64,000 nucleotides of DNA from positions 30,731-94,730 of the forward strand of contig CAYYIS010000008.1 of NCBI GenBank assembly GCA_964470965.1, read 5' to 3'. The translations under genes were made by a program, and so were the position numbers. Positions 5,318 through 61,685 of the stretch are shown one piece after another (positions within the stretch are counted from its first letter, which is position 1; each line of letters starts with the position of its first letter). Below the pieces are notes generated by a model. It had not been told where the DNA came from. It made no database searches and saw only the letters and a list, made by a program, of their open reading frames with translations. Source of the stretch: an uncultured Gemmatimonadota bacterium (lineage in GTDB: Bacteria; JAAXHH01; JABIQT01).

Positions 5318-5319
5318 GG

Positions 5320-10322: not shown

Positions 10323-10391
10323 CATAATTGACGGATAAGCGGAATATCCTATTCTGTTGATCCGCCAATACAAACTACCGGAGACATCTTC

Positions 10392-23178: not shown

Positions 23179-23183
23179 AGCTT

Positions 23184-24338: not shown

Positions 24339-24342
24339 AAGT

Positions 24343-24813
24343 TTATGCTCCGAGCACGACTTTATCGCCGATTACACTGACACCGAGCCGCACCAGCGGG
24401 ACCGGTGGCGGCCCACCTGTAACCTGTCCCTTTATATCGAAGCGGCCACCGTGACAAGGACAGATAAATTCCTGGTTTTTCTGCACCCATTTCACAGCAC
24501 ACCCCAGATGTGAACATGTCGCCATGAACGCGACAAATCCGTCCGGTCCGTTCACTACCAGCGCCGGTCGACCCCGATAGGTCACAACCTTGGCGGCGCC
24601 GGTCGGCAGTTCGGCCAGATCGATCTCGACCTTGCTGACACCTTTCGCTTCCGGCGGCGGCTCAATGTACCTTATCACAGGATATAGGAAACTCATCAGG
24701 CCCAGGCTGCTTATCAGCCCCATACACCTGGCCAGGAAACGGCGGCGCACTTCATATTTCGTAGGAGAACCTGTGGACGGCATAACGTCGTCCGGCGAAT
24801 TTAGCTGACCCAT
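24343..24813 (-). CDS. Rieske [2Fe-2S] iron-sulfur protein with Tat signal
   Basis: 156 aa. Rieske boxes 'CSHLGCAV' and 'CPCHGGRF'. Twin-arginine motif 'RRRFLARC' near the N-terminus. Confidence 0.85.
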   Translation of the reverse strand: MGQLNSPDDVMPSTGSPTKYEVRRRFLARCMGLISSLGLMSFLYPVIRYIEPPPEAKGVSKVEIDLAELPTGAAKVVTYRGRPALVVNGPDGFVAFMATCSHLGCAVKWVQKNQEFICPCHGGRFDIKGQVTGGPPPVPLVRLGVSVIGDKVVLGA

Positions 24814-31740: not shown

Positions 31741-32571
31741 TCATCCTTCCAATGGCTCCTCGTCGTTGAACACCTGCGTCCGCTTCATTACGCGTCGTTC
31801 CGTGTCGGGAAACGGTTCCCGACGGTGCATGGTAGGCCGGTTGTCCCACATGACAAGGTCGCCGACCTGCCAATGATGTGTCCACTCGAATTGAGGCTGC
31901 GACTGATGTGCGATCAGGGTATCGAGTAATTCCCTACTTTCGTTTTCGCTGAGACCGACGACGTATTTGGTCAGATGCGGCCCCACATACAGCGAACTTC
32001 TGCCGGTGTCAGGGTGTGTGCGCACCACAGGATGGTCAACTGGATAAGGCGGGTTCTGTTCCTCCACATAATGACGGTGCACCGCCCGCAAACCCTTCAA
32101 TCGTCTTTTCATCTCATCGTCGAGCGCCTCGTATGCGGCATAGCAGTTACACCACTGGGTGGCGCCGCCGACCATTGGAATCTCAACCGCGTACAGCACC
32201 GATATGGTGCCGGGTTTGGGCATGTATGAGAGGTCTGAATGAAAGCTAATTTCCTCATTGCCGAGGGCACCGATCGGCTCCCCATTCTCCTTCAGGTTGG
32301 AGATAATAAAGATTTCCTTCACACGCCGATCCCGTTGCTTACGGACATGTTGTACAGGCTTACCGAAATAGGAGGTGAATCGCACCTGATCCTCATCGGT
32401 AATCGTCTGATTTCGAAAATAGATCACACAGTGATCCTGCAATGCCTGTCGAACAATATTGACTTCCCGGGAAGAGAGTGGCAAACTCAGATCCAGTCCG
32501 GTTATTTCCACGCCCAGGGCGCCGCCGGTTGGGTGAACCTGCATGTGATCGTGCTTGTTCATGGTTGACAT
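31741..32571 (-). CDS. TauD/TfdA-family Fe(II)/2-oxoglutarate dioxygenase
   Basis: 'WHSDLSYMPKPGTISVLYAVEIP...GGATQWCN' and C-terminal 'MHRREPF' are typical TauD motifs. Start chosen at the ATG preceded by GAGGAG at 6 nt spacing. Confidence 0.7.
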   Translation of the reverse strand: MSTMNKHDHMQVHPTGGALGVEITGLDLSLPLSSREVNIVRQALQDHCVIYFRNQTITDEDQVRFTSYFGKPVQHVRKQRDRRVKEIFIISNLKENGEPIGALGNEEISFHSDLSYMPKPGTISVLYAVEIPMVGGATQWCNCYAAYEALDDEMKRRLKGLRAVHRHYVEEQNPPYPVDHPVVRTHPDTGRSSLYVGPHLTKYVVGLSENESRELLDTLIAHQSQPQFEWTHHWQVGDLVMWDNRPTMHRREPFPDTERRVMKRTQVFNDEEPLEG

Positions 32572-32581
32572 GAACCGCTCC

Positions 32582-33394
32582 TCAACGGTAGGTGAGTTTC
32601 GGTTCCTCACCGAGCATTTTTACACCACTTACCATTATGCTGTTGTTGGATTCATAGGCCGCTTTACCGATCGGACGGGTGGCAGGTGAATGGTATCCGA
32701 TGCGTACGGACTTTCGCCACTGGTCGGTGCGGTTTACATCGGACCAGTGGATCAGGTAATAACTGAAAAAGACGACGTCGCCGGGGTGGGCGGGAACCGC
32801 AACGGTATCCACCTTGTCAGGATGATACGTATCCGGCGGGAGATAGGGCCGGGTATGTTCGCCTGTAATATGTTCGAGGGGCCCTCTGCAATGACTTCCA
32901 GGCACCACCTGAAGGCATCCGCTTTCATGGGGTGTTTCATCCAGGTGTATCAGGCAATCCACGAAATCAGGTCCATCATGGGGGTAAAACGGATAGTCCT
33001 GGTGCATAGGAAACGGCGTACCTTTCTCCGGCGGTTTGGCATGAAGGACCGTGTGATGCCACTGCACATCGTCACCGAGCAGGGCCCGAAGAGATGCTAC
33101 CAGGCCCGGATGGAATATCACACGACTCCACGCGGCGGAATACATATGCGGATTGGATATCAACACAGCCTTTGTCTTATACCGTTCATTCTCCTCCAGA
33201 TAAACATCCCGCCACGGCCCGCGCCATCCGATGCTGTCTTCCCCCCACCATTCCTCGATCAGCCACTTCATCTCTCGGTTGAGTTCATCAACATCGGCAG
33301 GCGGCACCAACCCTTCAACCTTCACATAACCGTCCCGCTGATACAATGCAACCTGCTGCTGCGACAACATGTAATTATGCCTTTTCAGCAACAA
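32582..33394 (-). CDS. Phytanoyl-CoA dioxygenase (PhyH) family oxygenase
   Basis: 270 aa. 'FPMHQDYPFYPHDGPDFVDCLIHLDETPHESGCLQVVPGSH'. An alternative start at 33370 would remove the 20-nt overlap with the upstream gene. Confidence 0.7.
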   Translation of the reverse strand: MLLKRHNYMLSQQQVALYQRDGYVKVEGLVPPADVDELNREMKWLIEEWWGEDSIGWRGPWRDVYLEENERYKTKAVLISNPHMYSAAWSRVIFHPGLVASLRALLGDDVQWHHTVLHAKPPEKGTPFPMHQDYPFYPHDGPDFVDCLIHLDETPHESGCLQVVPGSHCRGPLEHITGEHTRPYLPPDTYHPDKVDTVAVPAHPGDVVFFSYYLIHWSDVNRTDQWRKSVRIGYHSPATRPIGKAAYESNNSIMVSGVKMLGEEPKLTYR

Positions 33395-42707: not shown

Positions 42708-44654
42708 TTAATACATGTGCACCCGGTGGCCGTTGCCAGGGAACCATATTATATCTACAATATAAAGTAAAAAAATACCCACCGTGTAGCCGGCTATCAT
42801 CCCGACGACAAAGGGTTGTGCCTTTCTATACTGTGTGACGCCGCCGATGCGAAGGAGCAGAACTTTGGCCAGCCAAGCGATAAAGATGGAGAATGCCATA
42901 GTCGGCATGCCCTCTGTAGCGGCCACGGCGTATCCGATCGGATGTAGCGGCCATCCGGGAAACCTGTGATGAATGAAAATCAAAACCCCTCCCACAACAC
43001 TGCCTATGGCCATGAAAAAAAACTCGACACCGGAAAACACTCTTTTATTGTTGAGCCAGGTGACCAGGGTGTTGTAGGATCCGCGGCTACCACCTGGAAA
43101 AGGAGGATCGGTGAATTGCTGCGCGCCGCCGGTAAAGTACCCCAGATACAGCGTGTACAGAACGGTTGTGATCACACCTATTGCCAGCGTTACCGTGATC
43201 ACCCCGAATACGCCGCGCCCTATCCCGCCCATCTGATCTCCGACTTTGCTGACATGCGCCATAGAGCACATTCCGAGGGTCCGCCAATTATGGGAATAGG
43301 CGTTAGAGAGGGCAAGTTGGGTAAGATTCATCGGCGAGATGCTTCCGGATCCGATGGTTGAAACCGTAAAGGCATGCGCATTGTAGGGCAGATCCACGAA
43401 TATCAAACCTGTTTCCGCCACGATACGTGTGATCCCGATGAACATAAGCAGCAATGAACCCATAAGGAAAGCGGCGATTCCCAAAGACATACCGGATGTC
43501 TGCAACCAGGCAAATATAAAAAGCAGACCGAAGAACAGGCAGAATAGGGCGGTCCGGTAACTCAGAAATTCCTTTGAATCATCCACATCCGGTGCCAGAC
43601 CTACGGCTTTTCTCCAGACAAGTGTTAAATGGCGCCGGGCCATCCACAGCGTGAACAGTACGAACACAATAAATCCACCCATATGCTGGGAAGTGGCAAC
43701 CCACGGCGCCCGGGGGACCCCTACCCGTACCATGACACCGGTTTGGAATGTCTTGATAAGGAAAAACAACCAGGTACTGAGCAGCACATTTGTGTGGGTG
43801 AAGAATGCGACACCGGCGGTCAGAAAATTGAACGTGATAGGGACCTCCGGAAACGAGCGCGCCGGTAACAGGTTGTTCTTATACAGTGCGAGGATAGTAA
43901 TTTCGGGTAAAACGTTAAAAAAGCTAAGCATCTGCCAGAAGAGTACTCCAAGGGCGGTTCCGAATCCGATCCAGAACAACCGGTTTCCCGTGATGGCGGG
44001 TAAAAGGCTTTCTTCACGGTCTACCTTTATCATCGCCAGAGGAATCTGCGCCAGTGGAAATACCAACCGTTCGTGTTCGATCCACTGTTTCCGCAGGATG
44101 ACGATCAGGGATGCGCCCACTAGAAATATGGCGAGAAAAAAAAGGCTCCACCAGAACAGGGGGGTAACCCAGAATTGCCAAAGCATCGACTCGCCATCGG
44201 GTAGCCCTTCGTAAAACCAGGCCACAGAGCTGTAGTTAGACACGATGAGCCAGTCCGGTAGGTACTGGAAAAACGTCTCCACCCAGCGGTTTTCAGGTGA
44301 CGCGAAGTAAAGAGGGCCGCTGATGACACCAAGCCAGTATGAACTGAACGCCCACCCCGGAATAGAGGATGCAGTGAAGACCAGAAAAAAAATGATTATA
44401 AGTTCCTGGGGCGATAGGCCACGGCGGGGAGAAAGGAATTTGAATGCAGGATTCAACAAGAAAACCGTCAGCACGAACGGAAACAACGCCGCGATCGGTA
44501 TATGGCTGATCGTGATCAGGGAAGAATTGGCATTGTAGGAGGTGTGTATGGCCCAAATACACGAGAGAATCGAAAGGACAACTCCGATTCCGACAGCACG
44601 GATCGTTAGTCCGGAGGGCACCGTCCTGTGGGTATCAGAGCTGGCGTTGATCAT
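42708..44654 (-). CDS. Large polytopic membrane protein of unknown function (DUF-type, ~15 predicted TM helices)
   Basis: 648 aa from the ATG at 44654, which overlaps the upstream ALDH stop by 1 nt (ATGA coupling). Strongly hydrophobic helical segments throughout; no transporter family recognisable by eye. Confidence 0.55.
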   Translation of the reverse strand: MINASSDTHRTVPSGLTIRAVGIGVVLSILSCIWAIHTSYNANSSLITISHIPIAALFPFVLTVFLLNPAFKFLSPRRGLSPQELIIIFFLVFTASSIPGWAFSSYWLGVISGPLYFASPENRWVETFFQYLPDWLIVSNYSSVAWFYEGLPDGESMLWQFWVTPLFWWSLFFLAIFLVGASLIVILRKQWIEHERLVFPLAQIPLAMIKVDREESLLPAITGNRLFWIGFGTALGVLFWQMLSFFNVLPEITILALYKNNLLPARSFPEVPITFNFLTAGVAFFTHTNVLLSTWLFFLIKTFQTGVMVRVGVPRAPWVATSQHMGGFIVFVLFTLWMARRHLTLVWRKAVGLAPDVDDSKEFLSYRTALFCLFFGLLFIFAWLQTSGMSLGIAAFLMGSLLLMFIGITRIVAETGLIFVDLPYNAHAFTVSTIGSGSISPMNLTQLALSNAYSHNWRTLGMCSMAHVSKVGDQMGGIGRGVFGVITVTLAIGVITTVLYTLYLGYFTGGAQQFTDPPFPGGSRGSYNTLVTWLNNKRVFSGVEFFFMAIGSVVGGVLIFIHHRFPGWPLHPIGYAVAATEGMPTMAFSIFIAWLAKVLLLRIGGVTQYRKAQPFVVGMIAGYTVGIFLLYIVDIIWFPGNGHRVHMY

Positions 44655-46174
44655 TAATCTCCGAACGAGATTCCCTGTGCCAGGGGAAGGTCCGTCGACC
44701 AGTTGATCGTATTCGTCTGTCGGCGCATATAACTTTTCCACGCATCAGATCCGGATTCACGGCCACCGCCGGTCTCCTTCTCACCACCGAACGCACCGCC
44801 GATTTCAGCACCGGAGGTGCCGATATTAACGTTGGCGATACCACAATCGGAACCGGCAGAACCGAGAAAGCGTTCCGCCTGGCGGATGCTGTCAGTGAAT
44901 ATGGCGCTTGAAAGCCCCTGTGGGACGCCGTTGTGAATCTCCACGGCGTCTTCGAGTGCGTCGTATTCCATCAGATACAGAATCGGGGCGAACGTCTCAT
45001 CCTTTACAATATCTGTCTGACCGGGCATCTTGATGATCGTGGGCTCAACGAAGTTCGGCCCGACATCGGCCTTGGCATTCCCACCGGAAAGCACCTCGCC
45101 ACCCTGGGCCTTCGCCTGTTCGATGGCCTTCATCATATCCTCGACCGCACCACCGGTAACCAATGGCCCCATAAGCGTGGCATCGTCGAGCGGGTCTCCG
45201 ATCGGAACCTGTTCGTAGGCGTTGACCAGCCGATCCGTGAGTGTCGGCATGATACTTTTATGGCCGATAATACGGCGTGTAGAAGTACATCTCTGACCCG
45301 CCGTACCTACCGCACCGAAAACAATCCCACGGGTCGCCAATTCCAGGTCCGCTTTTTCAGTGACGATTATAGCGTTGTTACCGCCCAGCTCCAGTATGGT
45401 ACTTCCAAAGCGACCGGCAACAGCGGCTGATACTTTTCTGCCGGTTTGGGTTGAGCCGGTGAAGGAGACTAGTGGTAACCGGGAGTCTTCCAGCATCATA
45501 CTGCCCACATCGCTGCCCCGGCCAATGGTCAGACCAAAGAGGCCATCCAGACCGTGGTCTCCCATGACCCGGTTGCAGAGATGCTGGACTGCGATGGCGG
45601 TCAGCGGCGTCTGACCGCTCGGCTTCCAAACCATAGTGTCGCCACAGACTGCGGCCAGAGCTGCGTTCCAGGACCACACGGCTACCGGAAAATTGAAGGC
45701 CGTGATGATACCTACCACACCGAGCGGATGCCACTGCTCGTACATGCGGTGCAGCGGACGCTCGCTGCCCATGGTCATGCCGTACAACTGCCGGGAGAGA
45801 CCGACGGAGTAGTCACAAATATCTATCATCTCCTGAACTTCTCCCATACCCTCCATCCGGATTTTGCCCATCTCAAGTGATACGAGTTCGCCCAATGGCT
45901 CTTTGTACTCCCGCAGGACATTGCCGAGGTCCCGGACTACCTCGCCGCGTTTGGGGGCCGGCGTCATTCGCCAAGTCTTGAAGCAACCGGCGGCTTTTTC
46001 GACAACCGCATTGTACACATCCGGCGTCGCCTGTCGCACCCCGGCGATCGGCTCACCGTTGGTTGGATTGTAGGAGGTTAAAATCGGCCCTTCGGTGTGG
46101 ATCCAGCCGTCGGGACCGTGGCAGGCCCCGTGATTAATCTCTTCTATATACAGTTTTTCGAGCAGTGCTTTCAT
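44654..46174 (-). CDS. Aldehyde dehydrogenase, ALDH7 (antiquitin / piperideine-6-carboxylate / aminoadipate-semialdehyde dehydrogenase)-like
   Basis: 506 aa. 'VSLEMGKI', 'VDICDYSVGLSR', 'GIITAFNFPVAVW', 'ELGGNNAIIV' and 'GTAGQRCTSTRR' align closely with ALDH7A1. Confidence 0.8.
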   Translation of the reverse strand: MKALLEKLYIEEINHGACHGPDGWIHTEGPILTSYNPTNGEPIAGVRQATPDVYNAVVEKAAGCFKTWRMTPAPKRGEVVRDLGNVLREYKEPLGELVSLEMGKIRMEGMGEVQEMIDICDYSVGLSRQLYGMTMGSERPLHRMYEQWHPLGVVGIITAFNFPVAVWSWNAALAAVCGDTMVWKPSGQTPLTAIAVQHLCNRVMGDHGLDGLFGLTIGRGSDVGSMMLEDSRLPLVSFTGSTQTGRKVSAAVAGRFGSTILELGGNNAIIVTEKADLELATRGIVFGAVGTAGQRCTSTRRIIGHKSIMPTLTDRLVNAYEQVPIGDPLDDATLMGPLVTGGAVEDMMKAIEQAKAQGGEVLSGGNAKADVGPNFVEPTIIKMPGQTDIVKDETFAPILYLMEYDALEDAVEIHNGVPQGLSSAIFTDSIRQAERFLGSAGSDCGIANVNIGTSGAEIGGAFGGEKETGGGRESGSDAWKSYMRRQTNTINWSTDLPLAQGISFGD

Positions 46175-46290
46175 GGGTCTAGATTCCTCAACTGTGGTTG
46201 TGTGAAACTTTATGCTTGCGGAACATTCTATCAGTACAAATAATATGAAAAAATGTCAACTACAAGATCGTATCAAAAGAAAGCGGGCAA

Positions 46291-47571
46291 ATGACGGGAA
46301 AGACAATTTATCAGAATGATCTTGTGGGGATTTTGTCCGAATTCGGGATGGAGAATCACCTCGCAAAGTGGGAAGTTGGTTGGCAGGTCTCATCCCGGTC
46401 TTATCAGGGGAATGCGCTTCACTTCATCCAAGCGGATTATGTAGATGAGCAATGCCGCTTCCTGGGAATGACCGCTGAAATGCGGTCCGAGGTCGTGGCC
46501 GGATCCGAGATGTTTAGGCGCATACCGATGTTAAAACCTCTGCTCTGGCACTGCCATGATCTCGCCTTCCGACAGACAGTCCCGCTTCACCACGGCGTAT
46601 TCCGCAACTGGTCGCCCATTCCCGATGCCGTCGACTCCTGCGCGGCCATGTTCTTTATTTACCTGTTTCTTTCAGGCGTACCCTATACTCTGGCGATGCA
46701 CCAGAATCTGAAGATTCCTCGGCAGGTTTCGGTCGATACTATGCGGGACCTCCTGGTGTGGATTGGTGATGAATTGAGAAAAACGGGACAGTGGGGACTG
46801 GATTTTTCACAGGTCAGTTGGCTCGGCCTGCATTTTACCGGTAACCTGTTCCAGCTGGGTCGGCTACAGTTTGACCGGAACAACTGCTATTATGACTTCC
46901 AGGCGTTCAAGCGGAAGTCCGATGGCCACATCGTCGTTCTGGCCGGTGACGGTCAGCGGTTCCGGAGCGATGGCCAGTTTGACGGCGCCAACGATACGAC
47001 CGACCCCAAGGCCTGGAACGCGGCTTTCCGGTCGACGGACACCGCTGTAACCGGCCACCCGCTCCATCCTGAAGGATACGCACAACATGAAACCGTAGAA
47101 TTACCAACCGCCGAATGGCATCGGGTTCTGGCACCAGGAGATACGACCATCGGCGTGCACATACCGGGTACAGGACCGATGGATTTCGATCAATGCGGCA
47201 ATTCATTCGGCCAGGCGCTGTCGTTCTGGCCAACCCATTTCCCGGAACACCGTGTCCACGCCTTTCTCTGTACCTCATGGCTCCTCGATCCCCAGTTCGA
47301 GCAAACTTTGCAACCGAACAGTAATATCGTTCGCTTTTTAAGGGAATGGTATTTGCTGCCTTTGCCTCATGCCGGTGGCGGGGAAACACTTAGGCGGGTT
47401 TTCGGTGTCCGGGAGGTGGGCGACGATAAGCTGTCCGCATTGTCGCAGAACACGTCGCTCGAACGTGCCGTCGTTCGTCATATCCAGTCAGGCGGCCAAT
47501 GGCGGGGCCACGGAGCGGTCATGTTTCCACACCATATGAACTGGGGTAAACAGGTTTACAGGCAAGGGTGA
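46291..47571 (+). CDS. Hypothetical protein (possibly acyltransferase-like, unconfirmed)
   Basis: 426-aa ORF with good coding character and no motif I can assign. Divergent from the ALDH operon. Confidence 0.3.
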   Translation: MTGKTIYQNDLVGILSEFGMENHLAKWEVGWQVSSRSYQGNALHFIQADYVDEQCRFLGMTAEMRSEVVAGSEMFRRIPMLKPLLWHCHDLAFRQTVPLHHGVFRNWSPIPDAVDSCAAMFFIYLFLSGVPYTLAMHQNLKIPRQVSVDTMRDLLVWIGDELRKTGQWGLDFSQVSWLGLHFTGNLFQLGRLQFDRNNCYYDFQAFKRKSDGHIVVLAGDGQRFRSDGQFDGANDTTDPKAWNAAFRSTDTAVTGHPLHPEGYAQHETVELPTAEWHRVLAPGDTTIGVHIPGTGPMDFDQCGNSFGQALSFWPTHFPEHRVHAFLCTSWLLDPQFEQTLQPNSNIVRFLREWYLLPLPHAGGGETLRRVFGVREVGDDKLSALSQNTSLERAVVRHIQSGGQWRGHGAVMFPHHMNWGKQVYRQG

Positions 47572-47669: not shown

Positions 47670-48671
47670 TCAATCAACGTCCCTGTACAGGCTCTGAACC
47701 GTTTTTACTACGGCAGCTTCGTTCGGAATGGTCGAGGGTTCCAGAGAGGGACTGAAGGGAACCGGGACATCCATGGCACCGAGTCGTTTTACCGGGGCAT
47801 CTAGATAGTCGAACGCTTCGTCGCCTATCAAGGAGGCTATTTCGGCGGTTACCCCGTAGCTTCGGTGGCCTTCGTCAATGACCAGGGCTCGGCTCGTTTT
47901 CCTGACCGAACTAAGGATCGTTTCGGTATCAAGCGGACTGAGCGTTCTCGGGTCAACCACTTCGACGCTTATGCCGTCTTCCTCCTGGAGTGTACCGGCC
48001 GCGTCCAAGGCTACCTGTACCATGCTGGAAGTGGCGACAATCGTGACATCAGATCCCTCTCTTTTGACGTCGGCTATCCCGATTGGTACCGTGTGGTCGA
48101 CACCTTCCGGCACCATACCTTTGACGCTGTACATCATCTTGTCTTCGTAAATAATGACCGGGTTTTCGTCCCTGATCGCGGATTTTAATAGGCCTTTGAG
48201 ATCGGCCGGGGTGGAAGGAATAAGAACCTTGATACCGGGAATATGCGCCATCCACGCTTGAAGGCTCTGGGAATGCTGCGCCGCTGAAGACCGGCCTGCA
48301 CCGATAGTGGTACGAATAGTAAGTGGAACACTGGTTTGACCGCCCGTCATGTAGCAGAGCTTGGCGGCCTGGTTCACGACCTGGTCCATGGCGATCGTTA
48401 TGAAATCACCGAACATTATTTCGACAATCGGTCGCATACCGGTCAGGGCGGCGCCCACTCCGGCCCCCATGATGCCGGCCTCCGAGATGGGCGTGTCTCT
48501 GATCCGACCCGGACCGAACTCGTCGACAAGACCGGCGGTTACTTTAAACACACCTCCGGCCGCCGCTACATCTTCTCCCATAAAAAAAACGGTCTCATCC
48601 CGGCGCATCTCTTCGGCGATCGCCTCGCGCACCGCTTCTCCGAATGTGATCTCTCTTTCAGATGTAGACAT
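47670..48671 (-). CDS. 2-oxoacid (pyruvate/acetoin/branched-chain) dehydrogenase E1 component, beta subunit
   Basis: 333 aa. 'FFMGEDVAAAGGVFKVTAGL', 'DTPISEAGIMGAGVGAALTGMRPIVEIMF' and the 'GDVTIV' transketolase-C region. Confidence 0.85.
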   Translation of the reverse strand: MSTSEREITFGEAVREAIAEEMRRDETVFFMGEDVAAAGGVFKVTAGLVDEFGPGRIRDTPISEAGIMGAGVGAALTGMRPIVEIMFGDFITIAMDQVVNQAAKLCYMTGGQTSVPLTIRTTIGAGRSSAAQHSQSLQAWMAHIPGIKVLIPSTPADLKGLLKSAIRDENPVIIYEDKMMYSVKGMVPEGVDHTVPIGIADVKREGSDVTIVATSSMVQVALDAAGTLQEEDGISVEVVDPRTLSPLDTETILSSVRKTSRALVIDEGHRSYGVTAEIASLIGDEAFDYLDAPVKRLGAMDVPVPFSPSLEPSTIPNEAAVVKTVQSLYRDVD

Positions 48672-49677
48672 GTTCAGCCACCTCTTCCTTGGCCGGAAAC
48701 GGCGCCAGTTTCCCGAATTCCACAGCGTGGCTTACGGCCTGTTTTATCGTTTGATCGATGTCTTCAATTCCCGCCTCGGTCGCCATGCCCGATGTCACCA
48801 TTCGGCGGGCCAACCGGGTAATCGGATCTCTGGTCTTCCAGGAGTCTGTCTCTTCCTGGGTTCGATATGTTTTCTCTGGATTTCCATCGCCCACATGGTG
48901 GCCGCGATACCGGTACGTTTTGGTTTCTATCATGCAGGGCCCGTCGCCTGAGCGAGCGCGTTCCACCATCTTGAGGGTAGTTTCATACACGGCGGCCACG
49001 TCCATACCATCAACAACCAGGGCAGGCATGTTAAAACCAGCCGCCCGTTCAGCCACGTGTTCTTTGATGGCGGTGACCTGTTTATGGTTCGTGTATTCAC
49101 CGTACTGATTGTTCTCACACACAAAAAGTACCGGAAGGTTCCAGACGGATGCCATATTAGCCGCCTCAAGGAATGATCCCTGATTCGCAGCACCATCACC
49201 GAAGAAACAGACTGCAACCTGGTCGGTGCCGCGTAACTGTGCGGACAAACCGGCGCCTGTAGCCATACCCATACCCCCACCGACGATACCATTGGCGCCC
49301 AGGATACCGAGGCTCATATCTGCGATATGCATCGTGCCTCCTTTACCTCGGTTATACCCGGTCTCCTTACCCATCATCTCCGCCATCATGCGATCCACAT
49401 GACCGCCTTTGGCTATCAGGTGACCGTGCCCGCGATGGGTGCTGGTAATGTAATCATCATCACGAAGCGCAGAACAGACCCCCACTGCTGATGCCTCTTG
49501 ACCGATATACGGATGGGCGAGTCCAGGCATAAGCCCCTGAGTATAAACTTCCAGAACCGCTTCTTCGAACCGACGTATGGTTACCATCTTCTGGTACATG
49601 TCGGCGCAAAGCTCAGGCGAAAGCGTGAGGTCTGTGTCATCACTGGTTGAAGGTATAATCTGGATTTCATCCGTCAT
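48658..49677 (-). CDS. 2-oxoacid dehydrogenase E1 component, alpha subunit (TPP-binding)
   Basis: 'GQEASAVGV', 'THRGHGH' and the TPP motif 'GDGAANQGSFLEAANMASVWNLPVLFVCENNQYGE'. Start chosen at the ATG with AGGAG upstream; the longer ORF extends to 49725. Confidence 0.8.
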   Translation of the reverse strand: MTDEIQIIPSTSDDTDLTLSPELCADMYQKMVTIRRFEEAVLEVYTQGLMPGLAHPYIGQEASAVGVCSALRDDDYITSTHRGHGHLIAKGGHVDRMMAEMMGKETGYNRGKGGTMHIADMSLGILGANGIVGGGMGMATGAGLSAQLRGTDQVAVCFFGDGAANQGSFLEAANMASVWNLPVLFVCENNQYGEYTNHKQVTAIKEHVAERAAGFNMPALVVDGMDVAAVYETTLKMVERARSGDGPCMIETKTYRYRGHHVGDGNPEKTYRTQEETDSWKTRDPITRLARRMVTSGMATEAGIEDIDQTIKQAVSHAVEFGKLAPFPAKEEVAEHVYI

Positions 49678-49804
49678 AGTACGCCGCACTCCTTTATTAA
49701 TTGAACACAAACCGGAATTCGACACGTGACTGCATTCATGTTTTATTCGAGAATCAGGCTTTCTAAATTAGTGAAACGTTTACGAAGGAGCAAGAGGAAA
49801 ATAT

Positions 49805-50398
49805 CTACTGGACATTTCGAGATCTCCCCAAGCGTTTCATGGCGTACGGAACGAGCACTATCATTAACACCAGTTCCGGAATGATGTAGCTGCCGTTGTA
49901 CAGAAGGGAGTATAACCACGGCGTCACGCCACCTTGTAACAAGGGCGGAAATGAAATACCAAGATACTCGTTGAAAAATTGATAGGTCTGTCGGTTTAAA
50001 CCGTCCGGGGCGTAAGCCGCAAAAAAAATGGCACCGGAGATCACATGAAAAACCAGCCCCGCTGCGCTGGACAGGCATATGCCCCACCTGGGTGACCTGC
50101 GGAACCATCCTGCGATGCCAATGGAGATGTATGGCAGAATAAAATCGAGCAGAACCTGAACCGGATGAAGGATTACAGGATCGAACATAAACGTGATAAG
50201 TCCGGTGATAAATCCGCCCGCCATACCCGCTTTGGGACCACACCGGAATGCCAGATAGAATAACGGAAGGAGTTTCAACGAAACAGAACCGCCCCAGGGC
50301 AGACGGTATAATTTAAAGAACCCGAGGACGGTCGCCAACGAAGCTACAACTGCGATCTCAACGAGCAAACGCTTCCGATCAGTCTGGGTGTTTGCCAT
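49805..50398 (-). CDS. thiT: Energy-coupling-factor-type thiamine transporter S component
   Basis: 197 aa, 6 TM. 'LLVEIAVVASLA', 'AGMAGGFITGLIT' and 'GIAGWF' align with L. lactis ThiT (LLTEIAFMAALA ... GIAGLF). Confidence 0.6.
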   Translation of the reverse strand: MANTQTDRKRLLVEIAVVASLATVLGFFKLYRLPWGGSVSLKLLPLFYLAFRCGPKAGMAGGFITGLITFMFDPVILHPVQVLLDFILPYISIGIAGWFRRSPRWGICLSSAAGLVFHVISGAIFFAAYAPDGLNRQTYQFFNEYLGISFPPLLQGGVTPWLYSLLYNGSYIIPELVLMIVLVPYAMKRLGRSRNVQ

Positions 50399-51008
50399 GT
50401 CCGTTAAGGCTTGCCGCCCGTTCGATGTGGGCCAGTTCCACCAGGCGTTTCACGATCTGCTCGAGGGAATCGTCGAGTTTGCGCATCCGTTCCGCGGTGG
50501 AGGTCAGTTCGAGGAGTGTCTGCTTTTCTTCCAGTTCCAAATCCATTGTCGATGCTATAAAGAAGGAAAACTGTTTCGGGTCGAATATCCCCTTCACGCC
50601 ACCTATCCCGCTTGTTTGAAGTTTTATCATGGCCTGATAGGATTCCAGTACGCGTTCCAGCAGGTCATCCGGTACGTCATCATTCACATCGTCGAAATAC
50701 TCGATAGTAGCTTCCAGGAGATCGTCGTCTTGTATGAATTCAAGGACATGAAACCGCCTGCTACCTTCGGTGAGTATATCTAATTTACCGTCCGCATACT
50801 GTGTATACACCTGCGTGACTTTAGCAGTACACCCCACATTGGAGAGTTGCGCGTCGTTGAGTAACAGGACGCCGAATTCGGACTCGGACTTAAGGCAATT
50901 GTCTACCATCTCCTTATAACGCTCTTCGAATATATGCAATGGAAGATGCATCCCCGGATACAATACCAGATTCAGTGGAAAGAGGGGAATGTTAAGCGTG
51001 TTTTCCAT
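50379..51008 (-). CDS. LON-protease substrate-binding (N-terminal) domain protein
   Basis: 209 aa. 'IPLFPLNLVLYPGMHLPLHIFEERYKEM' is the canonical start of the LON N-domain. No AAA+ or protease domain. Confidence 0.65.
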   Translation of the reverse strand: MENTLNIPLFPLNLVLYPGMHLPLHIFEERYKEMVDNCLKSESEFGVLLLNDAQLSNVGCTAKVTQVYTQYADGKLDILTEGSRRFHVLEFIQDDDLLEATIEYFDDVNDDVPDDLLERVLESYQAMIKLQTSGIGGVKGIFDPKQFSFFIASTMDLELEEKQTLLELTSTAERMRKLDDSLEQIVKRLVELAHIERAASLNGHGKHPD

Positions 51009-51238
51009 CGTACCGTGCTCCAGATATCTAGTGGGCCTTCTTGTAATTGTAAATTTGGAAATGCACCGTACTAATCCAAGGTCCGATGTTTGTCCATTAT
51101 ACAGTCGGTGGCAACCGTGTCAACGGAAAAAACTGAACCGCGAAAACCTGATGAAATGCTTGACTGCAACACCATCCCACACTATATTAATGTACTCTGC
51201 AGTTTCCATAAATAAGGGCATTTACAGGCGACTCCTTA

Positions 51239-52870
51239 ATGAGTTTATCGGAGAATAAAAAGACGCGTCGGAGTACGCGAGATGTTAGACAGGATTTCAG
51301 GACTATCTCCGGGGAATCGATCAATCCTCTTTACACTCCTGAGGACAGGGCTGACTCCGAATATGCTGACGACCTGGGAGATCCTGGTGTCTATCCTTAT
51401 ACCCGAGGCATCCACACCACCATGTACCGGGACCGGCTGTGGACTATGCGTCAGTTCTCCGGCTACGGTACGGCCGCTGATTCCAACTCACGGTTTAAAT
51501 TCCTACTCGAACACGGTCAAACCGGGCTGTCTGTCGCCTTTGACGTACCGACCCTGATGGGGCTGGATTCCGATCATCCCCTTTCCGAAGGAGAGGTCGG
51601 TGTCTGTGGTGTGGCGGTCGACTCTCTTGCTGATATGGAAACCCTGTTTGAGGGCATACCGCTCGGCTCGGTAAGTACGTCCATGACGATCAACGCACCA
51701 GCGTCGATCCTGCTGGCCATGTACCTCGCAGTAGCGGAAAAGCAAAGCGTGGCCTGGGCTGACCTGCGGGGTACGCTTCAGAATGACATCCTCAAGGAAT
51801 ATATCGCACAGAAAGAGTGGATATGTCCCCCCCGACCAGCCATGAAGATGGTGGCAGATACGGTCCTTTTCTGTACCGAACACGTTCCGCAGTGGAATCC
51901 CATCAGCATCAGCGGATATCATATCCGTGAAGCTGGTTCGACAGCCGTGCAGGAACTGGCTTTCACCCTGGCAGATGGATTTGCATACATCGACGCTTGC
52001 CTCGAAGCCGGTTTGGACATCGATCAGTTTGCCCCCCGCCTGTCATTCTTCTTCAATTCTCATATGGATTTCTTCGAAGAGATTGCCAAGTACCGTGCTG
52101 CCCGCCGCATCTGGGCCAAACATCTGAAACATCGGTACGGGGCCAGGAATGAAAAATCTCTCCTGATGCGCTTTCACACACAGACGGCCGGATGTAGTCT
52201 GACCGCCCAGCAGCCGGAAAACAACGTGGTCCGAACCACCATAGAAGCATTGGCAGCCGTCCTTGGAGGTACACAGTCGCTCCACACGAACGCACTCGAT
52301 GAGGCGTATGCCCTTCCCTCTGAACAGGCTGCAAAAATCGCCCTGCGGACCCAGCAGATCATCGCCCACGAATCCGGTGTGACTAACACAGTGGATCCAC
52401 TCGGCGGATCTTATTATCTCGAATCACTCACCGATAGCCTGGAAGATGCCGCAGAGGCCTATTTCGATAAAATCGCGTCGTTTGGCGGGATGGTAAGGGC
52501 CATTGAGGCGGGGTATCCTCAGAAAGAGATAAGCGACGCATCCAAGCGGTTTCAACATGCGGTGGAACAGGAAGAGCAGATTATAGTGGGCGTGAATGAA
52601 TATGTAGAACCCGATGAGTCGGATATAGAAATGCTCAGGATCGGCCCAGCCATCGAACGCGCACAAATCAGCCATCTCAAAGATACCAGAGACCGGCGCA
52701 GTGCATTAAAAGTGGAGCAGGCATTGCATGTATTGCGTGATACTGTGTCGATGGGTGGCAACTCCATGCCACCCATCCTGGATGCTGTCCGGGCATATGC
52801 TACGATCGGTGAAATTGTTAACGTGTTGCAGGCGGTGTACGGGACCTACGACGAATCGCCTGTTTATTGA
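51239..52870 (+). CDS. Methylmalonyl-CoA mutase family, large (substrate-binding TIM-barrel) subunit lacking the C-terminal B12-binding domain
   Basis: 543 aa. '[28 protein letters not shown]', '[11 protein letters not shown]' and '[23 protein letters not shown]' MCM motifs. Ends before any DxHxxG cobalamin-binding module. Confidence 0.8.
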
Positions 52871-52899
52871 CAGTGTCAGTCGTCCTGTAAGGAGTTTCC

Positions 52900-53649
52900 A
52901 TGAATACGATTGTCTGTATCAAGCAAGTACCGGATACGGCAACAAAGGTCCAGATTGCCGCCGACGGACGCTCAATCCAGTCCGGGGAATTGAACTATGT
53001 AATGAACCCCTACGACGAGTTCGCGGTTGAAGCCGCCACCACGCTGAAGGAACAGCACGGCGGCGAGGTGACCGCCGTCTGCCTCGGGACCCAGGATGCA
53101 GTAGCCGCGCTGCGTAGTGCTGTTGCTCTGGGCGCCGACCATGCCGTCCTGCTGAAGACCGACCGGCCAGACATCGATGCCTCCGCCACAGCCACCGCTC
53201 TCGCCGAGGCAATCCGGGCTCGGTCTCCCGATCTTGTATTGTTCGGCAAACAGGCCGTGGATGACGATAATGCCCAGGTCGGTCCGATGGTCGCCGAATT
53301 ACTGTCGATACCCTGTGTGTGCCAGATCGTAAATCTGGAATACAAGGATGGAATCGTGATGGTTAATAAACAGGTGGAGGGAGGCGAAGAAGTGGTATCT
53401 GTGTCCTTACCGACAGTGCTCACCACTCAAAAAGGATTGAATGAGCCGCGCTATGCCTCGCTCAAAGACATCATGCGTGCCAAGCGGGCGCCCATAGATG
53501 AACAGGAAGTGTCTCTGATCCCTTCACGGGTAGAAACTATTGAACTCAACCTCCCTGCGGAACGTCAGGCGGGGCTGTTTATCGGTCAGGGCACGGAGGC
53601 TGTACCTGAACTGATTCAGCGGCTGAAAGAAGAAGCGAAAGTGTTGTAG
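52900..53649 (+). CDS. etfB: Electron transfer flavoprotein, beta subunit
   Basis: 249 aa. 'MNTIVCIKQVPDT' and 'VLFGKQAVDDDNAQVGPMVAELL'. Confidence 0.85.
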   Translation: MNTIVCIKQVPDTATKVQIAADGRSIQSGELNYVMNPYDEFAVEAATTLKEQHGGEVTAVCLGTQDAVAALRSAVALGADHAVLLKTDRPDIDASATATALAEAIRARSPDLVLFGKQAVDDDNAQVGPMVAELLSIPCVCQIVNLEYKDGIVMVNKQVEGGEEVVSVSLPTVLTTQKGLNEPRYASLKDIMRAKRAPIDEQEVSLIPSRVETIELNLPAERQAGLFIGQGTEAVPELIQRLKEEAKVL

Positions 53650-53695
53650 ACCCCGATGCTCAGCCTTTTCGAGCATCTGTCACAAAGGGAACATC

Positions 53696-54877
53696 ATGAG
53701 TAAAAAAAAACCGGGTCTCTCGACCAAAGCGGTACATGCCGGCGAGTGCCGGGAAAAGCCGTCCCGGGCCATCACCAATCCTATCGTTCAGACATCTACG
53801 TATGTGTTCCGTAATACCGAAGAACTGATCGATTTCAACGAAGGTCGAATCGAAAGGGACGAATACGGTCGGTACGGCAACCCGACTAGGGCTGTGGCGG
53901 AAGCGAAGATTGCAAATTTGGACGGAGGAGAAGACGCGTTATTATTCTCATCGGGTATGAATGCCATCGTGTCAGTCCTTCTCGCCATGCTTTCACAAGG
54001 GTCTCATGTGGTGATCATGGATGAGTGCTACCGGCGGACCCGTCAGTTCTGTCTTCAAGTGTTGCCCCGATATGGAATCGAAGTTTCGTTCGTAAAAACC
54101 GGTGATTACGAAGCCATGCAAAAGGCTATTACGGAAAAGACGCGGCTGATCGTATCGGAGTCTCCAACTAATCCGTACCTGAACGTGATCGATCTGGAAC
54201 GGATCGCGTCCATTGCAAAAGAGCATCGCCTGAAAGTCATGATCGACAGTACGTTTTCCACGCCGTACAACCAGCGTCCGATCGAATTCGGGATAGATAT
54301 CGTAATACACAGTGCCACCAAATATCTGGGTGGTCACAACGACCTGATGGCCGGTGTGGTGGTCGGTAACAAGATGTTGCTGGGCGCTATCCGTGAATTT
54401 AGGGACATCACTGGCGGCATTACCGATCCCCATACGGCCTATCTATTGATCCGGGGTTTAAAATCCTTTGCGCTGCGTATGGAGCAGCACAATAAAAACG
54501 GTATGGCCATCGCCCGGTTCCTGGAAGAACATCCAAAGGTCCGTCGCGTATATTATCCAGGTCTGGAAAGCCATCGGCATTACGACATTGCGCAACGTCA
54601 AATGACCGGATTCGGAGGTGTTGTCAGCTTCGAGTTGGATGGCGACATGGACATGACGAGTCAATTCATCGACAGCCTGGAGCTGCCTTACATCGGTCCG
54701 AGCCTGGGTGGCGTGGAGAGTTTGATCGAGCAACCGGCACTACAATCTTTCTATGAAATGAGTAAGGAAGAACGGCTGGCTATCGGGATCAAGGATGAAC
54801 TGGTAAGATTTTCCACAGGTGTTGAAAATGCCGATGATCTGATCACGGACCTGGCACAGGCTCTGGATAAAATATAG
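53696..54877 (+). CDS. PLP-dependent Cys/Met-metabolism enzyme (cystathionine gamma-synthase / beta-lyase / methionine gamma-lyase family)
   Basis: 393 aa. 'TKAVHAG', 'YGRYGNPT' and the PLP-Lys motif 'HSATKYLGGH'. Confidence 0.75.
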   Translation: MSKKKPGLSTKAVHAGECREKPSRAITNPIVQTSTYVFRNTEELIDFNEGRIERDEYGRYGNPTRAVAEAKIANLDGGEDALLFSSGMNAIVSVLLAMLSQGSHVVIMDECYRRTRQFCLQVLPRYGIEVSFVKTGDYEAMQKAITEKTRLIVSESPTNPYLNVIDLERIASIAKEHRLKVMIDSTFSTPYNQRPIEFGIDIVIHSATKYLGGHNDLMAGVVVGNKMLLGAIREFRDITGGITDPHTAYLLIRGLKSFALRMEQHNKNGMAIARFLEEHPKVRRVYYPGLESHRHYDIAQRQMTGFGGVVSFELDGDMDMTSQFIDSLELPYIGPSLGGVESLIEQPALQSFYEMSKEERLAIGIKDELVRFSTGVENADDLITDLAQALDKI

Positions 54878-54894
54878 TTTGATGAGGAGAATAT

Positions 54895-55878
54895 ATGGCA
54901 GGTGTACTCGTTTTCGCAGAACAGAGAGACGGCACATTTCGGAATGCGGCATTTGAAGCGGTTAGTGTGGGACGCAGGCTGGCCGATGAGCTGAATACTG
55001 AGCTGGTAGCAGCGGTCGTAGGGGCAGGTGTCAGAGACATGGCAGCCTCTCTCGGGCGGTACGGCGTTGACAGGGTGATCGTGGCTGATGCCCCGGACCT
55101 CGCACGGTTTTCCAGCGATGGATATACGACGGCGGTGGCCGACATCGCACGTTCGTTTGACCCATCTGTTTTATTGCTCTCGGCCTCGGTCACGGGTAAA
55201 GCACTTGGACCGGCGGTGGCAGCCCGCTTGGAAACCGGCCTGGCAACAGACTGTATCGATATTTTGATAGCAGGTGGACGCCTGGAGATCCAGCGACCGG
55301 TCTATGCGGGTAAAGCCATCGCCACCGTTATCATCAAGACAGATCCGCAGATCGTCTCGCTTCGTCCCAATGTGTTTCCCGCTACCGTTATGGATGAGCA
55401 GGGATTCGCGCCGGTGGAGCAGGTGTCGGCAGGAGTTACCGCTGACTGCACCCGCGTGGCGGTTCAGGAGATCGTAGCTGCCTCCGGCGGCAGGCCGGAT
55501 TTAACGGAATCGCCTGTTATCGTCTCCGGTGGCCGCGGCCTGGGCAGTCCCGAGAATTTCTCACTCATCGAGGAGCTGGCCGATGTGCTGGGCGGTGTGG
55601 TCGGTGCTTCACGAGCGGTGGTGGATATCGGTTGGCGTCCCCAGTCCGACCAGGTCGGCCAGACCGGCAAGACCGTATCGCCCTCATTATATATCGCCTG
55701 CGGCATCTCGGGCGCCATACAGCACCTGGCGGGAATGTCATCCTCCAAATGTATCGTGGCCATCAACAAGGATCCAGATGCCCCGATCTTCCAAAAGGCG
55801 GATTACGGTATCGTTGGGGATGTGCTCGAAGTGGTGCCAGCGCTCACGGCGGAACTGCGGCGAGTTCTAGGACGCTGA
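54895..55878 (+). CDS. etfA: Electron transfer flavoprotein, alpha subunit
   Basis: 327 aa. 'PVIVSGGRGLGSPENF', 'LGGVVGASRAVVDIGW' and 'QVGQTGKTVSPSLYIACGISGAIQHLAGM'. Confidence 0.85.
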   Translation: MAGVLVFAEQRDGTFRNAAFEAVSVGRRLADELNTELVAAVVGAGVRDMAASLGRYGVDRVIVADAPDLARFSSDGYTTAVADIARSFDPSVLLLSASVTGKALGPAVAARLETGLATDCIDILIAGGRLEIQRPVYAGKAIATVIIKTDPQIVSLRPNVFPATVMDEQGFAPVEQVSAGVTADCTRVAVQEIVAASGGRPDLTESPVIVSGGRGLGSPENFSLIEELADVLGGVVGASRAVVDIGWRPQSDQVGQTGKTVSPSLYIACGISGAIQHLAGMSSSKCIVAINKDPDAPIFQKADYGIVGDVLEVVPALTAELRRVLGR

Positions 55879-55912
55879 CCCACCCGTTAATATAAGGTGC
55901 CTATGAAATAAA

Positions 55913-55950
55913 AACGGCCATCGGATGAATGTATCCCGATGGCCGTTTTG
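55913..55950. terminator. Bidirectional rho-independent terminator between convergent etfA and recA
   Basis: aaaaa-CGGCCATCGGAT-gaatgt-ATCCCGATGGCCG-ttttg. A ~12-bp GC-rich stem with a 1-nt bulge, flanked by an A-run on one side and a T-run on the other. Confidence 0.65.
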
Positions 55951-60848: not shown

Positions 60849-61685
60849 CTATTCCGGCTTCCGTCTATAGAGCTGCCGGCCGTAAGGTCGGGCATCACCG
60901 TCGTACTTTGGGTGCAGTGGCTCCACAAGCGCCCGCGCCCGCGCCGGCCACCCGCCAGACAGCGGCTGTATTTTCGCCACCATCTGTGCCTTGATGGGTT
61001 CAGGAAGGGCGTCGAACCTCGGTTGATACCAGAGCGTGATCACCGTGCGCCTCTCATCGGATGCATTGCCATGTGTGGCGTGAAGCAACCGCGCGTCCCC
61101 AATGAGCAAATCACCGGCTTTCACTGGCACATCGAGTTCATCGGGCCGTTGGGAAAATGCGGGCATCCCTTCATCATACGTCGAAGACAGTTCTTCCGAG
61201 TGAGGTTCATCGATTACATCGTGCAGAGCGTTGTGAAGCCGATGGGACCCAGGAATTACACGAAGACAGCCGTTCTCACGACCGGTGTCGGACAGGTAGT
61301 ACATCAGAAAAACCTGTTGAGGATCGGGATCGTAGGCGGTAGGATCCTGCCACGCAAACCAGTCGTAATGCCAGAACAGCGCCGGGCTGTGAGGCGGCTT
61401 GGATATCACATATCCATCGGTATAAGTGGGATGCTCAAACCCTAGAGCTTTGATTGCGTCCAGCGCAGGTTGCCAGGCTATGAGTTCCGCGAATATCGCG
61501 TCGGCGGACGTCCGCACCATGCTGCCCTGGGTAAGGTTTTGCCCTGGATCTTCCAGGTTCTGAGTTTCCGCCAGACGGGTCGTTACCTCGCTCAGGCGCT
61601 TGACGAACGGTTGGGTCAGAATGTCTTCGAACAGGCAGAATCCGTGTTCTATGAGTTGGGCGTATTTTTCCGATCTATTCTTCAT
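60849..61685 (-). CDS. Phytanoyl-CoA dioxygenase (PhyH) family oxygenase
   Basis: 278 aa. 'FWHYDWF' (HxD), 'GCLRVIPGSH' and 'LLHATHGN'. Confidence 0.7.
   Translation of the reverse strand: MKNRSEKYAQLIEHGFCLFEDILTQPFVKRLSEVTTRLAETQNLEDPGQNLTQGSMVRTSADAIFAELIAWQPALDAIKALGFEHPTYTDGYVISKPPHSPALFWHYDWFAWQDPTAYDPDPQQVFLMYYLSDTGRENGCLRVIPGSHRLHNALHDVIDEPHSEELSSTYDEGMPAFSQRPDELDVPVKAGDLLIGDARLLHATHGNASDERRTVITLWYQPRFDALPEPIKAQMVAKIQPLSGGWPARARALVEPLHPKYDGDARPYGRQLYRRKPE

Follow-up and report, generated by a model that had tools for sequence, protein, structure and literature searches.

Why should etfB and etfA, the two genes of an electron-transfer flavoprotein (ETF) heterodimer, be held apart by a gene for an unrelated enzyme dependent on pyridoxal phosphate (PLP)? 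The question is raised by a 64,000-nt stretch of DNA (hereafter the window) from an uncultured bacterium filed under Gemmatimonadota (GenBank assembly GCA_964470965.1, contig CAYYIS010000008.1, positions 30,731 to 94,730 of the forward strand), which the names attached to its homologs place in Candidatus Latescibacterota. The four open reading frames (ORFs) concerned follow one another on the same strand:

51239-52870, + strand: acyl-CoA mutase large subunit, ORF of 543 aa, the substrate-binding subunit, B12 domain absent
52900-53649, + strand: etfB, ETF small (beta) subunit, ORF of 249 aa, Pfam ETF
53696-54877, + strand: plant-type cystathionine gamma-synthase (CGS)-like PLP enzyme, 393 aa, Pfam Cys_Met_Meta_PP
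54895-55878, + strand: etfA, ETF large (alpha) subunit with the electron-transfer FAD domain, 327 aa, Pfam ETF and ETF_alpha

The spacers measure 29 nt (mutase-etfB), 46 nt (etfB-PLP), and 17 nt (PLP-etfA), and each of the three holds a Shine-Dalgarno-like sequence (AAGGAG, AAGGGA, GAGGAG). The four ORFs, their coordinates and plus strand, and the spacers of 46 and 17 nt are exactly those of a previous sequence-only reading of the stretch; its family-level gene calls agree with Pfam, and its shared terminator corresponds to a strong hairpin downstream of etfA, at 55911-55949. The pathway that it went on to propose, from methionine or homocysteine through 2-oxobutanoate and propionyl-CoA to methylmalonyl-CoA, with participation of the ETF, is not supported, in view of the residues of the mutase, the affinity of the PLP enzyme to CGS, the linkage of its family to thrC (threonine synthase), and the separability of the modules in relatives.

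The etfB-X-etfA split is instead an unusual conserved gene-order variant of one uncultured Latescibacterota lineage, with all parts drawn from known families, and the locus looks like an old inherited quirk of gene order and not like a new sulfur-amino-acid pathway. Specifically, the explanation that we favour, and hold to be fairly probable, is that of a mixed-function operon in which the PLP gene came to lie between etfB and etfA by relocation in the clade ancestor, with products that act independently. The four genes, the co-transcription of which is predicted from their layout, would thus probably represent a conserved mixed operon of functionally unlinked parts. The family-level identities, the signature residues, the gene orders of relatives, and the tree are observations; co-transcription, the substrates, the direction of the rearrangement, and the absence of biochemical coupling are deductions.

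Gene order in relatives and history of the split

The exact PLP protein of the window has no match on look-up, and a 99% variant was found. The order etfB-PLP-etfA, which the sequence-only reading had proposed to look for in relatives, recurs at PLP identities of 99% (L001/L002), 81% (L003/L004), 76% (L168), 75% (L169), and 71% (the P0021 locus), in loci that come from independent ENA, JGI, and Logan assemblies and among which EtfB identity goes down to 61%. The relatives display four configurations of the locus (E1a and E1b, pyruvate-dehydrogenase-type E1 alpha and beta, together E1ab; ThiT, thiamine transporter; LON, LON_substr_bdg protein):

Configuration A (window, L001-L004): E1b-E1a-ThiT-LON, divergent from mutase-etfB-PLP-etfA, with recA convergent
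Configuration B (L169, P0021 locus): ThiT-LON, divergent from etfB-PLP-etfA; no mutase and no E1ab
Configuration C (L005, L170, L006/L007, L171): E1b-E1a-ThiT-LON, divergent from mutase-PLP; no ETF
Configuration D (L173): lone etfA beside recA

Moreover, L168, which is cut upstream of etfB, also carries etfB-PLP-etfA, and on the short contig L008 the mutase is followed directly by the PLP gene. Every close relative with sufficient flanking sequence has LON and ThiT beside its PLP locus, and E1ab occurs only together with the mutase, both being present in A and C and both missing from B. The etfB-PLP spacer varies across lineages (46 nt in the window, 4 in L168, 96 and 111 elsewhere) and has no conserved sequence or structure. 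In a neighbour-joining (NJ) tree of the PLP proteins (numpy-based, 200 bootstraps), the close clade is supported at 95%, the window's group branches first with 99%, and configuration C forms a single clade, at 99%, nested among the ETF-bearing lineages.

Two observations concern single relatives. L173, a contig of a Latescibacterial metagenome-assembled genome (GCA_016209865.1), carries at 9001-9984 an intact etfA of 72% identity next to recA and a TPR gene, and neither etfB nor the PLP gene within the 9 kb upstream of it; unless this contig is chimeric, the ETF genes, once split, can separate further. In the ETF-less relatives, the mutase of L170 (6405-7946) is divided into two ORFs of 377 and 126 aa, and the E1 beta of L171 (2611-3611) into two of 176 and 157 aa, either through frameshift sequencing errors or as incipient pseudogenes.

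Outside the clade, the flavoprotein and the PLP enzyme are found in different company. EtfA homologs of at least 69% identity occur only in this Latescibacterial group, and the nearest outgroup ETF (L172, 6216-9596) is encoded by a contiguous etfB-etfA-fixC-fixX array, with an EtfA of about 61-62% and an EtfB of 53% identity. For the PLP protein, a metagenome scan returned at least 600 matches, all of them, among those listed, at 66% identity or less; the wider family was studied in about 160 loci (53-66% identity), the neighbours of which were clustered and the recurrent ones identified. It spans Latescibacterota, Methylomirabilota, Chloroflexota, Planctomycetota, Myxococcota, and others, and its PLP gene has thrC immediately upstream and co-directional in 32 loci and convergent downstream in 11, with homoserine kinase (thrB, 10 loci), aspartate kinase (9), leuB, and hisC as other neighbours. 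The thrC-PLP order is present in other Latescibacterota genomes as well (L025, L027, L030, L034), and none of the roughly 160 loci has an ETF or mutase gene near the PLP gene. In the window, the PLP gene is no longer beside thrC or thrB: the association is a property of the family and not of this locus.

Since the outgroup states are thrC-PLP and contiguous etfBA, relocation of the PLP gene is the most parsimonious history, and we infer the following direction for the rearrangement. A methionine-biosynthetic PLP gene, with its ancestral site just downstream of the threonine synthase gene, would have moved in the clade ancestor to the short gap between an etfB and an etfA that were until then contiguous; thereafter it would rely on the upstream promoter, and etfA on read-through across it, with the order locked. 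The triad would then have been inherited vertically through deep divergence, until both etf genes disappeared from one nested subclade, where mutase-PLP remains, and the mutase and E1ab from other lineages, which retain etfB-PLP-etfA. Irrespective of the precise topology, the passage from configuration A to C takes deletions only, whereas that from C to A is far less plausible because it needs two separate subunit insertions flanking one gene. Under this history, EtfA and EtfB would pair into a heterodimer of the ordinary kind, which carries electrons for flavoprotein dehydrogenases with genes at other sites. A short-chain acyl-CoA dehydrogenase acting on the butyryl- or isobutyryl-CoA handled by the mutase is a plausible partner, and mutase and ETF could plausibly work together in short-chain acyl-CoA metabolism; the PLP enzyme would yield cystathionine or homocysteine. 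The locus would thus offer a natural example of a housekeeping gene trapped within a heterodimer operon through deep divergence, the subunit genes of which were later lost together.

The sequence-only reading had named, as evidence against itself, a canonical etfBA in relatives and a PLP gene that is a recent, lineage-specific insertion with its own promoter. This is largely borne out, since a contiguous relative exists (L172) and the insertion is lineage-specific; it is, however, old and not recent, and no promoter of its own is evident. A recent horizontal insertion is discarded on two grounds, the age of the arrangement and an unremarkable third-position G+C content (GC3) of the PLP gene, which at 0.576 lies inside the range of its neighbours.

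Several points weigh against the relocation of an independent gene. The backbone nodes of the NJ tree reach 32-60%, so that the nested position of the ETF-less clade depends mainly on the parsimony of events. The P0013 contig (15,133 bp) holds a mutase homolog, no EtfA match is assigned to it, and it may represent a second ETF-less lineage. The triad survives without the flanking mutase and its etfB-PLP gap shrinks to 4 nt in L168; its persistence could reflect selection for co-expression rather than mere lock-in. The use of O-phosphohomoserine by the PLP enzyme, which is probable, is deduced from homology and gene neighbourhood only. Lastly, the 64-kb window contains no acyl-CoA dehydrogenase, ETF:quinone oxidoreductase (ETF-QO) or FixCX, IcmB, or MeaB, all of them possible partners.

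The flavoprotein and its possible ties to the PLP enzyme

The domain content of the two subunits is that of an ETF heterodimer: Pfam PF01012 is found in EtfB and EtfA (148 bits) and PF00766 in EtfA (127 bits), and both proteins align over their full length with solved ETFs. Among PDB structures, EtfB matches first the ETF beta subunit of Paracoccus and then bifurcating EtfB proteins, and the best matches of EtfA are CarE and the EtfA proteins of C. difficile and A. fermentans, which belong to bifurcating complexes. The best NCBIfam ETF matches are the subunits of acryloyl-CoA reductase ETF, far under the cut-off.

The type of ETF was read from the nucleotide “zipper” motif of EtfB, which is DDDNAQ in the window and DADNGQ or DGDNAQ in relatives, with Thr in none. 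Bifurcating group 2 EtfB proteins carry DGDTAQ (Thr in 100% and Gly in 95% of 216 sequences), and canonical group 1 proteins carry DDDxNQ (Asn in 98% of 449 sequences) (PMC8958531). In the window's EtfB, neither the Gly nor the invariant Thr of the former is present, and Ala takes the Asn position of the latter, with the “extra” Asp at position 2 retained. The segment aligned to the bifurcating DT-LAT motif, in which Thr94 and Thr97 form hydrogen bonds with the ribose of the bifurcating FAD, reads DASAT, with the first Thr replaced by Ala and the second kept. No adjacent bifurcation partner (FixCX, Bcd, Ldh, or CarC) is encoded in the 64-kb window.

The whole ETF clade, including its fixC-fixX-linked member, has an EtfB motif of the form D[DAG]DN[AG]Q, which is neither the bifurcating nor the canonical consensus. 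The odd motif is unrelated to the splitting of the etf genes, because the contiguous outgroup L172 has DDDNAQ too.

These features bear on an alternative that we deem unlikely, namely that ETF and PLP enzyme form a functional unit in which co-expression or physical interaction is under selection and the ETF serves a redox step linked to the PLP enzyme. If true, it would explain why the triad outlives the loss of the flanking mutase: the triad is kept in at least five lineages, including those without mutase and E1ab, and both the 4-nt junction of L168 and the unusual EtfB motif count in its favour. The motif, however, also occurs in the fixCX-linked outgroup with contiguous genes, the etfA of L173 stands alone with no etfB or PLP gene nearby, and we know of no ETF-using redox chemistry for this PLP family. 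Above all, the functional unit is disfavoured because the ETF was lost cleanly, in a whole subclade, without change in the PLP enzyme: PLP proteins from ETF-bearing and ETF-less loci show two fixed differences only, both conservative (I26V and G334A). Between the close clade and the thrC-linked members, none of the ten catalytic or binding positions that were checked differs, apart from an Arg/Lys variation at residue 114 and a single Thr/Ser at residue 208, both among the thrC-linked proteins. The more specific proposal of an electron exchange between EtfAB and a step tied to the substrate or product of the CGS-like enzyme, such as a new homoserine or sulfur-amino-acid redox branch in Latescibacterota, possibly within a physical complex, appears very improbable.

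The PLP enzyme, the mutase, and the proposed catabolic route

The catabolic route is a rival that links all four genes. In it, the PLP enzyme would have gamma-lyase activity towards methionine, homocysteine, or cystathionine; the resulting 2-oxobutanoate would be converted by E1ab to propionyl-CoA and then to methylmalonyl-CoA, which the mutase would turn into succinyl-CoA, and the ETF would take electrons from an acyl-CoA dehydrogenase. The layout agrees with such a route, as the four genes are co-directional and tightly spaced and a 2-oxoacid dehydrogenase E1ab pair and a thiamine transporter are divergently adjacent; gamma-elimination to 2-oxobutanoate lies within the capability of CGS-family enzymes, and the acryloyl-CoA reductase ETF matches, though far under the cut-off, point the same way. 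The route is nonetheless highly unlikely, for reasons that reside in both enzymes and in their neighbourhood.

Starting from the PLP enzyme, its top PDB match is the tobacco CGS (1qgn/1i41), with 417 bits over residues 11-393, and the best methionine gamma-lyase scores 343 bits, about 75 below. The motif CYR[KR]TR is common to the PLP enzyme and the tobacco CGS, and methionine gamma-lyases have YGCT at that place, the Cys of which is their active-site hallmark; the PLP enzyme reads YRRT, with Arg at the position of the Cys. The residues to be expected of a plant-type CGS, including the PLP Lys and a Tyr and an Arg contributed by the adjacent subunit, are conserved in it (Y57, R59, Y112, R113, R114, D184, S206, T208, K209, and R371). 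Every NCBIfam model remains under its cut-off, the best being PRK08249 of the CGS family (412 versus 600), with the methionine gamma-lyase model TIGR01328 at 391 against a cut-off of 550 bits and the other lyase models also short. Of the sequence-only assignment to a CGS or methionine-gamma-lyase family, the CGS side is favoured over the lyase side.

Because its family adjoins thrC, thrB, and aspartate kinase across phyla, this neighbourhood indicates that the PLP enzyme is biosynthetic and not catabolic. O-Phosphohomoserine is a substrate of both threonine synthase and plant CGS (PMC13257386), and the PLP enzyme probably uses it as well.

Plant-type CGS homologs lie directly downstream of thrC, often with thrB and aspartate kinase, at L009, L016, L018, L021, L025-L027, L030, L034, L035, L041, L042, L045, L071, L089, and others, with the PLP gene at about 10001-11170 in most of these loci. 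They suggest a methionine synthesis based on O-phosphohomoserine in Latescibacterota, Methylomirabilota, Chloroflexota, Myxococcota, and others, and the vicinity of these homologs to thrC/thrB in so many phyla suggests that this synthesis is wider in bacteria than annotation implies; no characterisation of the bacterial thrC-linked plant-type family was found in the literature searched. In Planctomycetota loci, another Cys/Met-family paralog, of 38-42% identity, comes directly after the CGS-like gene, in the manner of a metB-metC trans-sulfuration pair (L062, 11198-12325; L069, 11279-12400; L078, 11194-12315; L083, 3333-4463).

As for the mutase, Pfam detects MM_CoA_mutase (PF01642) alone and no B12 domain, as the sequence-only reading had it; the separate B12-binding subunit that this implied is a sound deduction and an unremarkable one. 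All of the 120 closest database homologs are stand-alone, nearly all of 500-600 aa, and without the DxHxxG cobalamin motif, so that a large subunit lacking the B12 domain is ordinary. The absence of the small subunit from the window also stands: no B12-binding domain or MeaB occurs among the ORFs chosen for annotation across the 64 kb, and a six-frame scan for DxHxxG...SxL...GG gave one false match, inside a PhyH protein.

The name methylmalonyl-CoA mutase (MCM) is made doubtful by the active-site residues. In PDB comparisons, the mutase is closest to HcmA (4r3u, 541 bits), ahead of the human and M. tuberculosis MCM (about 488) and of IcmF (292), and it scores 640 bits with the NCBIfam MCM equivalog NF006944, under the cut-off of 876. 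MCM is defined by Tyr89 and by Arg207, the latter of which binds the substrate carboxylate (P. shermanii numbering). In direct alignments, the mutase has RQF where human and M. tuberculosis MCM have RQY (Tyr89 to Phe) and YIAQ where they have FMVR (Arg207 to Gln), and these replacements make the binding of a carboxylated substrate unlikely. The signature of isobutyryl-CoA mutase (ICM) is Phe and Gln in the two places, and Ile90 and Asp117, both visible in the 4r3u sequence, are the specificity residues of HcmA; the mutase has Phe in place of Ile90, and its SVAFD corresponds to the STDFD of HcmA, with Asp117 replaced by Ala. The Phe/Gln signature is kept in every mutase-bearing relative, and the Phe/Gln/Ala combination is read in 110 of the 120 closest homologs, one motif being unreadable in the other 10; those with names belong to Gemmatimonadota, Calditrichota, Actinomycetota, Firmicutes, and other groups. 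By these residues, the mutase is assigned to a large multi-phylum family of putative stand-alone ICM-like large subunits, and its “methylmalonyl” label is probably wrong. Such mis-annotation of ICM-type enzymes as MCM is known to be widespread (PMC7764203, citing Cracan et al. 2010). A branched-chain route, in which valine would be converted via E1ab to isobutyryl-CoA for the mutase, was considered and downgraded, as E1ab matches pyruvate-dehydrogenase-type models.

Taken with the thrC/thrB linkage of the PLP family, the Phe/Gln of the mutase, a PLP enzyme that resembles plant CGS more than it does any methionine gamma-lyase, and the Arg in place of the hallmark Cys argue against the catabolic route. 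Likewise, its modules separate freely in relatives while the PLP protein stays unchanged, and neither propionyl-CoA carboxylase, nor an epimerase, nor an acyl-CoA dehydrogenase is encoded in the 64-kb window. The correction has a practical value, since a reading that joins MCM, methionine gamma-lyase, and ETF would introduce a false pathway wherever the metabolism of Latescibacterota is reconstructed.

Two further rivals concern the gene order itself. A gain in two steps, with mutase-PLP as the ancestral state and etfB and etfA as subsequent insertions flanking the PLP gene, could be accommodated by the backbone support of 32-60%, under which the ETF-less clade might be sister to the ETF-bearing lineages. 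It demands, however, two insertions of the subunits of one heterodimer at separate sites flanking one gene, the nearest outgroup ETF is contiguous, and the earliest branches of the best tree are ETF-bearing lineages; we consider it extremely unlikely. An assembly or binning artefact is a negligible prospect: all the data are metagenomic contigs, but ENA, JGI, and Logan assemblies obtained independently, and from different samples, show this order too, at several levels of divergence. The relocation of a biosynthetic PLP gene into an etfB-etfA operon therefore remains the favoured account.

Window context and comparison with known systems

The putative signals of the locus and its divergent neighbours are the following:

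51160-51188, + strand: sigma-70-like promoter candidate TTGACT-17-TATATT, 10/12, upstream of the mutase
51096-51123, - strand: candidate with the sigma-70 consensus TTGACA-16-TATAAT, a perfect 12/12, facing the LON/ThiT/E1 genes
53655-53677, + strand: 7-bp inverted repeat GATGCTC/GAGCATC in the etfB-PLP spacer, just past the etfB stop
55911-55949, unstranded: bidirectional intrinsic-terminator-like hairpin, dG -27.8 kcal/mol, z -4.39, A5 / T4 flanks
50379-51008, - strand: LON_substr_bdg protein, divergent neighbour
49805-50398, - strand: ThiT-type thiamine transporter, divergent neighbour
48658-49725, - strand: pyruvate-dehydrogenase-type E1 alpha, 356 bits against a cut-off of 394
47670-48671, - strand: pyruvate-dehydrogenase-type E1 beta, exceeding the model cut-off

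The plus-strand site, located in the 230-nt divergent intergenic region, is the likely promoter of the operon as predicted from that region, and it stands back-to-back with the stronger minus-strand site; promoter-like sites are no more frequent in the region than in shuffles, so both are candidates only. A scan inside the cluster gave no convincing internal promoter. The hairpin, which sits between etfA and the convergent recA, was missed by the promoter/terminator scan (its loop is over the limit) and was folded directly instead; none of 200 shuffles was as stable. The inverted repeat has no T-run, lies in a spacer with a fold of -11.9 kcal/mol, and is absent from the spacers of relatives, and it is probably incidental; a conserved regulatory hairpin in this spacer was rejected, as the spacer sequences of relatives are unrelated. 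Rfam, searched at E<=1 across 46-58 kb, returned no riboswitch and no other RNA.

The divergent LON, ThiT, and E1ab genes (47670-51008) are to be regarded as context, and are not demonstrably members of the unit. Among them, the ThiT transporter is directly upstream of the thiamine-diphosphate-dependent E1 alpha/beta pair (47670-50398, - strand), with no E2 or E3 nearby. Beyond, at 44654-47571, a gene for L-piperidine-6-carboxylate (alpha-aminoadipate semialdehyde) dehydrogenase, which scores above the NCBIfam cut-off, diverges from one for a NAT_N/GNAT_C acyltransferase, and the two may serve lysine catabolism as a pair. An overlap of 88 nt between the dehydrogenase ORF and a long GTG-start DUF6785/DUF6784 ORF (42708-44741) probably results from an over-extended start. 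At 22381-24813 (- strand), a Rieske protein, a cytochrome b, and a multihaem cytochrome c in a row make up a respiratory complex of the bc type. It follows that the organism respires, a point of relevance to where its ETF could deliver electrons. The window also has unusually many genes for Fe(II)/2-oxoglutarate dioxygenases of the PhyH family and TauD-like type (5284-6108, 13850-14626, 31741-32610, 32582-33394, 60849-61685), scattered among sugar-modifying GFO/IDH/MocA oxidoreductases and xylose-isomerase-like TIM-barrel proteins.

Compared with known systems, the locus resembles each of them in part. With canonical etfBA, including the etfB-etfA-fixC-fixX type (EtfABCX/FixABCX), it shares the two subunits, their domain content, and their sizes; it differs in the unrelated 1.2-kb PLP gene that separates the subunits and in having no fixC/fixX, ETF-QO, or acyl-CoA dehydrogenase nearby. 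The mutase is similar to IcmA of the Streptomyces cinnamonensis IcmA/IcmB pair, and to the fused IcmF, in its Phe/Gln at both positions and in being a stand-alone large subunit of about 545 aa. Unlike IcmA/IcmB, it has neither a small B12 subunit nor a MeaB-like chaperone in the window, and its activity is predicted; in overall sequence it is nearer to HcmA and MCM than to IcmF (541 and 488 versus 292 bits). HcmA of Aquincola tertiaricarbonis (4r3u) is its top structure and shares the split into large and small subunits and the Gln at the Arg207 position, with RQI and STDFD at the specificity positions where the mutase has RQF and SVAFD. The PLP enzyme has in common with methionine gamma-lyases (9qm6, 7bqw, 1gc0) the fold family PF01053, with about 340 bits, and departs from them in YRRT instead of YGCT and in scores under the cut-off of all the NCBIfam lyase models. 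Compared with the tobacco CGS, it is bacterial, has Arg in place of the tobacco Lys165, acts on a substrate that is predicted, and in this clade has lost the adjacency to thrC; it shares with it CYR[KR]TR, the PLP lysine, and the carboxylate-binding arginine, and the plant branch point, at which CGS and threonine synthase both act on O-phosphohomoserine, is matched in bacteria by the thrC, thrB, and aspartate kinase neighbours of its family.

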